Below, piece after piece: positions 2,556 through 4,073 of a stretch of 29,033 nt of DNA (positions within the stretch are counted from its first letter, which is position 1; each line of letters begins with the position of its first letter). The notes beneath the pieces are model-generated. The model ran no database searches, was not told the DNA's origin, and was given only the letters and a program-made list of their open reading frames with translations. Origin of the DNA: a virus (taxonomy: Duplodnaviria; Heunggongvirae; Uroviricota; Caudoviricetes). A program made the translations under genes and the position numbers. The DNA lies in the IMG/VR virus record IMGVR_UViG_2896607866_000010; one strand, written 5' to 3'.

Positions 2556-2674
2556 GGTGCATTCCTCACGATGTGCGAATAAAAAGCCCGGGCATTGCGC
2601 CAGAGACATGTGAGGTAGCCTGAGTTTAACGGACACTCCTTCCTGAAATAGAATGGCATCAGAAGGAGCTAATA

Positions 2675-2977
2675 ATGAGCAGAAAAACCCAACGTTACTC
2701 TAAAGAGTTCAAAGCCGAAGCTGTCAGAACGGTTCTTGAAAATCAACTTTCGATCAGTGAAGGCGCTTCCCGATTATCCCTTCCTGAAGGCACTTTAGGA
2801 CAATGGGTTACCGCCGCCAGAAAAGGGCTCGGTACTCCTGGTTCCCGCACGGTGGCTGAACTGGAATCTGAAATTCTGCAACTGCGTAAGGCGTTAAATG
2901 AAGCTCGCCTTGAGCGAGATATATTAAAAAAAGCAACAGCGTATTTTGCACAGGAGTCGCTGAAAAATACGCGTTAA
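2675..2977 (+). CDS. IS600 transposase OrfA (HTH DNA-binding)
   Basis: 100-aa ORF with SD AGAAGGAG; IS3-family OrfA; A-AAA-AAG slippery heptamer at 2927-2933 for programmed -1 frameshift into OrfB. Confidence 0.9.
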   Translation: MSRKTQRYSKEFKAEAVRTVLENQLSISEGASRLSLPEGTLGQWVTAARKGLGTPGSRTVAELESEILQLRKALNEARLERDILKKATAYFAQESLKNTR

Positions 2978-3012
2978 TCGAACAATGGCGACAACAATTT
3001 CCCATTGAAGCG

Positions 3013-3831
3013 ATGTGTCAGGTATTTGGTGTATCCAGGAGCGGTTATTACGACCGGGTACAGCATGCCCCCTCAGACAGAAAACAAAGTGATGAGCGGC
3101 TAAAACTGGAGATTAAGGTGGCACATATCCGCACTCGCGAAACATATGGAACCCGGCGGCTCCAGACGGAGCTGGCAGATAACGGAATTATCGTCGGTCG
3201 TGACAGACTGGCACGTCTTCGTAAGGAGCTGAGGCTGCACTGTAAGCAGAAACGCAAGTTCAGGGCGACCACAAACTCTGACCACAATCTGCCAGTTGCG
3301 CCAAATCTGCTGAACCAGACGTTCGCTCCTACAGCACCAAATCAGGTCTGGGTGGCGGACCTGACGTATGTTGCCACACAGGAGGGATGGTTGTACCTCG
3401 CTGGCATCAAAGATGTTTATACGTGCGAAATTGTCGGCTACGCCATGGGAGAGCGCATGACAAAAGAGCTGACAGGTAAAGCCCTGTTTATGGCGCTCAG
3501 GAGCCAGCGCCCACCTGCCGGGCTAATCCACCACTCTGATCGAGGTTCACAGTACTGCGCATACGATTACCGGGTCATACAGGAGCAGTTTGGTCTGAAA
3601 ACATCAATGTCGCGTAAAGGTAACTGTTACGACAACGCTCCGATGGAAAGCTTCTGGGGAACGCTGAAAAATGAGAGCCTGAGCCACTATCGTTTTAATA
3701 ACCGGGATGAAGCCATCTCAGTAATACGGGAATACATTGAGATTTTCTACAATCATCAGCGTCGTCACTCTCGTCTGGGGAATATCTCCCCGGCAGCCTT
3801 CAGGGAAAAATATCATCAGATGGCTGCTTAA
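3013..3831 (+). CDS. IS600 transposase OrfB (DDE catalytic domain; normally made as OrfAB fusion)
   Basis: 272-aa ORF in the -1 frame relative to OrfA; IS3-family integrase-core motifs (DLTYV, HSDRGSQY, NAPMESF). Confidence 0.9.
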   Translation: MCQVFGVSRSGYYDRVQHAPSDRKQSDERLKLEIKVAHIRTRETYGTRRLQTELADNGIIVGRDRLARLRKELRLHCKQKRKFRATTNSDHNLPVAPNLLNQTFAPTAPNQVWVADLTYVATQEGWLYLAGIKDVYTCEIVGYAMGERMTKELTGKALFMALRSQRPPAGLIHHSDRGSQYCAYDYRVIQEQFGLKTSMSRKGNCYDNAPMESFWGTLKNESLSHYRFNNRDEAISVIREYIEIFYNHQRRHSRLGNISPAAFREKYHQMAA

Positions 3832-3874
3832 AAAAAGAACAAATGGTAGTGTCCGCTATTGCCTGTACACCTCA

Positions 3875-4073
3875 ATTCTTTGGCATTTTTTACCTCGTTA
3901 CGCGCGTCTGTGGCTTTGCCAACGGATACTTCCGCGTGCGCACGAGTGAACCAGTGCGTGGCAACGTCTTCCTCCACAACATGACGGCCTTTAACAAACT
4001 CGCGCCGAGAACCGTCGGGAAGCGTGAGCACAAACGGGGTATGTACGTGTATTACTGCATCATTTTTTGCCAT
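3875..4073 (-). pseudogene. N-terminal fragment (about 66 codons) of a phage structural gene truncated by IS600
   Basis: ATG at 4073 with SD AAGGATGA directly downstream of the capsid gene; the reading frame runs into the IS600 right end at 3874. Confidence 0.5.

Follow-up and report, generated by a model that had tools for sequence, protein, structure and literature searches.

IS600 in place of the tail module in an ipaH-bearing prophage remnant

Genes around the IS600 element

The window, by which we mean the whole 29,033-nucleotide stretch of DNA analysed here, begins inside an ipaH gene and ends at the stop codon of int. Towards its ipaH end, an IS600 element separates the remains of two phage genes, and all genes on both of its flanks lie on the minus strand except ipaH. 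The features of this part are listed below, where L046 stands for the locus coordinates of the E. coli FDAARGOS_944 prophage, which was used as the intact reference.

1..1812, plus strand: ipaH of the 608-aa 'IpaHb' type, LRR_TTSS and NEL domains, convergent to the flank genes
1813..1992, minus strand: 59-aa ORF, matching phrog_7784 over its full length
1992..2555, minus strand: DUF4376 gene (PF14301 and phrog_1141), intact
2566..2610, minus strand: last 45 nt of an Stf-like gene ('prophage tail fiber N-terminal domain'), distal edge of the deletion
2611..3874, plus strand: IS600 (IS3 family), complete, 1264 bp, without target duplication
3875..4073, minus strand: truncated STY1053-family gene, 66 of 73 codons kept, proximal edge of the deletion
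4115..9642, minus strand: head module (Pfam and PHROG matches), 99.86% identical to L046 21397-27164, with the genes that follow
4115-5056, minus strand: major capsid (Pfam/PHROG)
5068-5574, minus strand: cement protein (Pfam/PHROG)
5578-6798, minus strand: DUF2213 protease/scaffold-like protein (Pfam/PHROG)
6802-7584, minus strand: Mu F-like protein (Pfam/PHROG)
7436-8902, minus strand: portal (Pfam/PHROG)
end of the head module, to 9642, minus strand: 3' part of terL, which is split by IS2
9643..10973, strand not given: IS2 inside terL, simple insertion with the 5-bp duplication ATTGC
10974..12417, minus strand: 5' part of terL and putative small terminase gene (PF04466), 99.86% identical to L046 19958-21401

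The window begins 15 nt after the ATG of ipaH, and the reading frame is open across all 603 codons present; position 1 corresponds to L046 44572, inside the ipaH CDS of FDAARGOS_944 (42761-44587). With an N-terminal LRR_TTSS domain (PF12468), a C-terminal NEL domain (PF14496) and a match to NCBIfam IpaH_Shig (NF046045, 562.7 bits against a cutoff of 550), the gene belongs to the IpaH family, and its product is a predicted LRR and NEL E3 ubiquitin ligase and T3SS effector. The neighbouring 59-aa ORF also has weak matches to tail assembly chaperone and Tfa PHROGs (E ~5e-4) and is possibly a fragment of a tail-fibre assembly gene.

The DUF4376 gene has a GTG start at 2555 with GAGGAA before it, and an in-frame ATG is found at 2609-2607. 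It holds the fibre-chaperone position after stf, and in EIEC prophages this gene also comes after the side tail fibre gene; the intact relatives have a canonical tfa upstream. When the protein was compared with the Tfa families (Tfa / Caudo_TAP), no match was obtained, and it matched only DUF4376 and PHROG 'tail fiber protein' families, with no NCBIfam match. The gene, called tfa-like in the original prediction, is thus tfa-like in its position but not in its family.

A mosaic patch is present in the DUF4376 gene at 2169-2243, where ~22 substitutions separate the allele shared by the window and S. flexneri from the alleles of VL40, FDAARGOS_944 and CFSAN029787. Outside this patch, the cassette is nearly identical between the window/S. 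flexneri and EIEC alleles.

The cassette stf-DUF4376-ipaH is found behind three tail types in EIEC: a lambda-like siphovirus tail in CFSAN029787, a Mu-like myovirus tail in RMDEC465, and a SEN34/E217-like myovirus tail in VL40 and FDAARGOS_944. In FDAARGOS_944, ipaHb is followed by a partial DNA invertase gene. ipaH may sit in a former invertible tail-fibre segment and may move as a module.

On the head side, a structural gene starting at 4073 had been predicted to run into the IS after about 66 codons. The ORF from 4073 indeed consists of 66 phage-derived codons (4073-3875) and 15 codons inside IS600, ending at 3828 and encoding 81 aa. What had been described as a truncated head-module gene is truncated, and its identity can be refined to a 73-codon STY1053-family gene, which loses only its last 7 codons and keeps its 42-position conserved domain whole (NF047914, 70 bits). 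The intact 73-aa CDS in FDAARGOS_944 is L046 26966-27187, and the break falls after L046 27164.

The IS600 copy and its flanks

The termini of the element at 2611-3874 are imperfect inverted repeats (TGAGGTAGCC.../...GGTGTACACCTCA) beginning TGAGGT. Its orfA (2675-2977, 100 aa) contains an HTH_Tnp_1 domain, and its orfB (3013-3831, 272 aa) contains an rve domain and matches NCBIfam NF033516 (IS3-family transposase) with 333 bits against a cutoff of 160. The two are linked by an A6G frameshift motif (-1) at 2927, and all three are intact. The DNA is 97.9% identical to RefSeq copies annotated as 'IS3-like element IS600 family transposase'. The ends, orfA and orfB, the motif and this identity bear out the original assignment of the element to IS600.

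The 3-bp flanks had been reported to differ, and they do: ATG (2608-2610) on one side and ATT (3875-3877) on the other, so that no target duplication is present. In related loci, each of three IS600 copies examined as controls is flanked by a perfect 3-bp duplication (AAC/AAC, CCC/CCC and GTT/GTT). Besides the IS2 in terL, the window contains the following insertion sequences.

12418-13666: IS911, one of a direct pair, with a CTT duplication, between the small terminase gene and a DedA/VTT gene
20961-22209: IS911, the other of the direct pair, with a TTT duplication, inside a replication-region gene
24663-25993: second IS2, direct to the IS2 at 9643-10973, with the 5-bp duplication CTCAG
27688..28455, strand not given: IS1, no 9-bp target duplication, replacing 4.7 kb

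Perfect target duplications flank the two IS2 and the two IS911 copies (4/4). Because these four copies and the three control IS600 copies all duplicate perfectly, the missing duplication at IS600 is real and not a boundary error. The copies in the window without a duplication are IS600 and IS1, and each of them coincides with a deletion. The lack of the 3-bp duplication bears on the history of this IS600 copy and not on its identity.

Compared with 28 copies in related loci, the IS600 of the window shows 97.7-98.4% identity and differs at 20-29 positions. A patch of 17 SNPs at 3052-3280 (~7% divergence), together with a few scattered changes, sets it apart from all 28, and the patch alters 9-10 residues of OrfB. 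Gene conversion from a diverged IS600-like element could account for this patch. The exact OrfB of the window is on record in one other contig only, AKMV01000006.1. A search of the IS600 sequence for a hybrid (crossover) signature relative to the other copies revealed none, the copy differing mainly by the one central patch.

IS600 is a multicopy element in Shigella and draft contigs usually break at it, which raises the question of a false join across a repeated sequence. However, the independent draft assembly containing AKMV01000006.1 (GCA_000268085.1) has ipaH, DUF4376, IS600 and the head genes joined identically on this single contig, with 0 mismatches over 8.77 kb. The distinct allele described above makes the IS600 of the window an effectively unique sequence, so misassembly is unlikely on that ground too, and altogether we regard an artefact as highly improbable.

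Intact relatives and the extent of the deletion

Both flanks were aligned to intact relatives (E. coli FDAARGOS_944, EIEC VL40 and phage vB_EcoM-611R5), a check that the original prediction had itself proposed, and the deletion was defined as L046 27165-41962. The whole window is collinear with the near-intact FDAARGOS_944 prophage from int to ipaH, in 8 blocks of 98.8-99.9% identity. The lowest value belongs to the left cassette (98.8%, against 99.4-99.9% elsewhere), owing to the mosaic patch at 2169-2243. The differences between the two consist of IS1 in place of 4.7 kb, IS600 in place of 14,798 bp, the two IS2 and two IS911 insertions, and a 970-bp loss in the lysis region.

IS600 replaces exactly the 14,798 bp of L046 27165-41962, its flanks lying at L046 27164 and 41963 on the same strand. 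Window position 2610 equals L046 41963 and the stf CDS of FDAARGOS_944 ends at L046 42007, so the deletion takes the last 23 nt of the STY1053 gene at one edge and spares the last 45 nt of stf at the other. The stf-side flank runs on uninterrupted in 10 EIEC genomes. About 20 genes fall in the missing block. They include the genes for neck terminator, sheath, tube, chaperone, tape measure / transglycosylase, baseplate, spike and tail fibre, together with tfa, DUF4054 except for 12 nt, and stf almost in full. No tail gene is left in the window. The original prediction had reported no tail shaft, tape-measure or fibre genes, and in agreement with this every non-IS segment maps to non-tail parts of the FDAARGOS_944 prophage.

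The FDAARGOS_944 prophage (NZ_CP065613.1, ~4,286,289-4,329,172) lies between ybhA and pgl and carries the same 608-aa ipaHb as the window, while its sister in EIEC VL40 (NZ_CM177011.1) lies at att-lambda with a 587-aa ipaH beside ybhB. Both have a full contractile tail behind the head, and behind the tail stf, DUF4376 and ipaH, arranged and oriented as they are in the window; the comparison with VL40 gives the same picture of the deletion. The two prophages resemble the window in their early, lysis, terminase and head genes (99.4-99.9% identity) and in the stf-DUF4376-ipaH end. Unlike the window, they still have their 14.8-kb tail module, their lysis genes and the int-xis-gam-recE end; the window differs from them by IS600, IS1, two IS2, two IS911 and three deletions.

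More distant relatives are two contractile-tailed temperate phages, vB_EcoM-611R5, whose head module is 98.3% identical to that of the window over 2.9 kb, and Salmonella phage SEN34, whose head module is ~82% identical. Both have the gene order capsid, STY1053, DUF4054, tail; in vB_EcoM-611R5 a 73-aa gene and a DUF4054 gene come after the capsid gene, and a full contractile tail after these. They differ from the window in having other early regions and no ipaH, and in being functional phages. The gene order of the window without IS600 and without a deletion was found in none of FDAARGOS_944, VL40 and vB_EcoM-611R5.

Could the element have lacked a tail from the outset, as a satellite-like or capsid-only entity? 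Nothing beyond the absence of tail genes from the window speaks for this. Against it, both STY1053 (at codon 66 of 73) and stf (45 nt from its end) are interrupted mid-frame by the break, and the head runs on into a neck/tail module in 3/3 relatives inspected here. In addition, a 2.2-kb query that begins at the end of the capsid gene and stops where the sheath gene starts is covered to at least 80% at one place in 338 E. coli genomes. A naturally tail-less element is refuted by the comparison with FDAARGOS_944 and VL40 and by the 338-genome query, and we give it virtually no chance.

The original prediction of an IS600-mediated deletion of the tail region that left the effector gene attached is thus supported by the 14,798 bp that FDAARGOS_944 has between the two flanks, the mechanism by which IS600 took part being a separate matter (see below). 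The window is a dead prophage that combines a lambdoid early region with the structural genes of a contractile-tailed phage, of the type found between ybhA and pgl in EIEC and Shigella, with ipaH as cargo behind the side-tail-fibre cassette. Without its tail module, it is unable to make particles.

Split junctions in S. flexneri

The 81-aa fusion ORF is listed in 471 blocks of a public gene-position index. In the S. flexneri complete genomes listed, the far side of the IS600 holding this ORF is a Mu-like transposase remnant (c-ner-A') beside dcuC, and never DUF4376 or ipaH. These genomes also have an IS600-DUF4376-ipaH-pgl junction. It lies ~209-213 kb from there on a second IS600 copy in inverted orientation (e.g. 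CP182555.1 and CP026788.1), and before it come a 926-bp recE fragment and a third IS600.

This cryptic ipaH-bearing remnant of S. flexneri ('ipaH island'; CP000266, CP026788 and CP182555) is identical to the window in the nucleotides of both the IS600/head and the IS600/DUF4376 junction. It also shares the IS2 in terL and the ipaH cassette, the latter with 5 differences in 2.6 kb. The two differ in arrangement. In S. flexneri, ~210 kb separate the junctions, which have an IS600 copy each, inverted relative to one another, and are joined to the Mu-like transposase remnant and the recE fragment; in the window both junctions lie on one IS600 and are collinear with the intact prophage.

The 3-bp flanks of the three S. 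flexneri copies are TAT/ATT, ATG/TAT and TAT/GCC. In the intact prophage, the sequence that flanks the third copy on its YdaE side runs straight into the one that flanks the second copy on its recE side, around ATA at L046 7503-7505. Since these outer flanks are contiguous there, they point to one simple IS600 insertion (TAT duplication) that was later split by recombination, with the 926-bp segment flipped, and this pairing suggests that the S. flexneri arrangement is derived, by IS600-by-IS600 inversions. The collinear one-IS600 state of the window is probably closer to the ancestral one. The window is not the direct ancestor of the S. flexneri state, because the recE fragment kept by S. flexneri was lost from the window with the deletion at IS1. 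At least one inversion of ~210 kb, the 926-bp flip and further events are needed for the S. flexneri history.

Another pairing, of the Mu-side flank (…GGTTTAT) with the recE-side TAT flank as one ancestral insertion, was rejected. The joined sequence stops 4 codons past the junction, and it is the YdaE-side flank that, in the intact prophage, makes a perfect partner for the TAT flank on the recE-side copy.

The split junctions bear on a further explanation for the window, in which nothing was deleted in situ and IS600 recombination between separate chromosomal places (inversion or translocation) brought a foreign ipaH cassette to the head remnant. The S. flexneri half-junctions head-IS600-MuA' and recE'-IS600-DUF4376, on different, inverted IS600 copies ~209-213 kb apart, are consistent with such a history, and so is the presence of the cassette behind three different EIEC tail types. 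However, both flanks of the window have their native order and orientation relative to an intact prophage with the same 608-aa ipaH next to pgl. In S. flexneri the cassette still adjoins the early region of the same prophage and pgl, and the flank pairing (contiguous in the intact prophage, TAT duplication) marks the S. flexneri arrangement as the rearranged one. The native order and orientation of the flanks, together with an ipaH of the same 608-aa type as at the FDAARGOS_944 end, make an in-situ deletion far likelier than a join of unrelated loci, which we consider improbable.

Origin of the deletion

The window contains a single IS600 whose flanks lie in the same order and orientation, and far apart, in an uninterrupted relative, as expected of a deletion between direct copies. 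Such a deletion would begin with two independent IS600 insertions in the same orientation, one in the STY1053 gene (AAT duplicated) and one near the end of stf (CAT duplicated). RecA-dependent recombination between the direct copies would then remove the intervening DNA and one copy, and a single IS600 would remain with one flank from each parent insertion. The convergent ipaH, with its own promoter on the far side, was left intact.

Two IS600 copies in one tail module are plausible, since in sibling prophages the element has inserted at three other places in the tail module, every time with a duplication. Recombination between IS600 copies does take place at this locus, as seen from the split half-junctions and the flipped 926-bp recE fragment in S. 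flexneri. A precedent is provided by IS2: in S. flexneri LR213452.1 one IS2 is present, with the flanks …gattgc / ctcagc…, and the 13.7 kb that separate the two IS2 sites in the window are missing. As in the IS600 case, one IS is left with a flank from each parent and the DNA between them is gone; the difference is that both parental IS2 insertions are observed, in the window itself, whereas neither parental IS600 insertion is. Moreover, the copy-out/paste-in transposition of IS3-family elements gives, on its own, simple insertions and not adjacent deletions. Because of the sibling insertions, the recombination at the locus, the IS2 precedent and this mode of transposition, we favour recombination between two direct IS600 copies over an adjacent deletion by one copy, and regard it as the probable route. 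We infer the two-copy intermediate; the final structure is identical by either route, so it does not settle which was taken.

The parental junctions were also sought directly. The predicted junction words were GGCTACCTCAAATCAAAGTCTGC for IS600 in the STY1053 gene with the tail still downstream, and GGATGCACATTGAGGTGTACAGG for IS600 in stf while the fibre gene upstream is still in place. Neither insertion occurred among the ~50 contigs read. A scan of genome contigs with a working control found only the known S. flexneri-type junction, in 2 genomes; scans of viral contigs and metagenomes were empty, and their positive controls were equally empty.

By the other route, one IS600 would have inserted at one endpoint, and a transposase-dependent intramolecular event (adjacent deletion by an IS dimer, or one-ended attack) would have reached the other. 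A single IS without a duplication, with deletion endpoints that abut its ends exactly, agrees with this, as do the intact orfA, orfB and frameshift motif, and the two-copy intermediate was not found in the ~50 contigs or in the controlled scan that returned 2 genomes. Yet the end structure is the same as after two-copy recombination and so lends this route no specific support, copy-out/paste-in elements of the IS3 family normally make no adjacent deletions, and the same prophage shows an IS2-by-IS2 recombination deletion and IS600-by-IS600 inversions. We therefore hold the one-copy route to be rather unlikely, though a serious candidate, and recombination of two direct copies remains our preferred reading.

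Insertion sequences and prophage decay in Shigella

Across all species of Shigella, IS1, IS2, IS4, IS600 and IS911 have multiplied, and they are a driving force of gene loss, deletion and rearrangement (PMC7373316). The prophages of S. flexneri are reported to be massively degraded, and an ipaH-bearing island with many transposases has been described (PMC5596473). In EIEC O96:H19, a pair of IS600 copies is linked to the loss of the 23-kb tra region of pINV (PMC7283534). That loss is like the one in the window in that IS600 served as the substrate for losing a large block of dispensable genes; it differs in concerning a plasmid and inverted IS600 copies, and the window a chromosomal prophage. 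The junction is a well-resolved instance of the known IS-driven decay of prophages in Shigella and reveals no new mechanism or type of element.

It offers a clean example, at base level, of a prophage whose ipaH has been kept in Shigella while insertion sequences took the carrier phage apart, and hundreds of public assemblies contain its half-junctions. It is also of use in annotation: the 'hypothetical protein' of 81 aa in hundreds of assemblies is a fusion of the STY1053 gene with IS600, and the 'tfa-like' gene is a DUF4376 gene. Such mapping helps to interpret structural variation between Shigella genomes. A more speculative reading, to which we give little credence, is that the junction IS600 is an old, sequence-divergent copy that was used repeatedly as a recombination site, the DUF4376-ipaH end being kept in every arrangement by selection for the effector. 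If this were true, placing the junction on a phylogeny could date the order of the large Shigella inversions.

Other losses and genes in the window

The IS1 replaces L046 2868-7562, comprising the 5' part of int, xis, gam and recE, and marks a second IS-associated deletion in the prophage. This deletion is specific to the lineage of the window, since S. flexneri keeps part of recE. The IS911 at 20961-22209 leaves a truncated 155-aa ORF (22207-22674).

In addition, ~970 bp of the lysis cassette are gone at 14470-14480, where no IS lies at the breakpoint. The lost segment corresponds to L046 18187-19156 and holds the end of the holin gene, the lysozyme gene and most of an Rz-like gene.

Four tRNA genes (Gly-TCC, Thr-TGT, Arg-TCT and a tRNA with the anticodon CAT) are located at 15304-15613, between the Q-like antiterminator and holin genes, as in the EIEC relatives. 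The backbone also includes cargo-like genes for a DedA/VTT membrane protein (13803-14315), a hok-like toxin (17819-18031) and a QueH epoxyqueuosine reductase (18202-18888), and all three are also found in the intact EIEC relatives.
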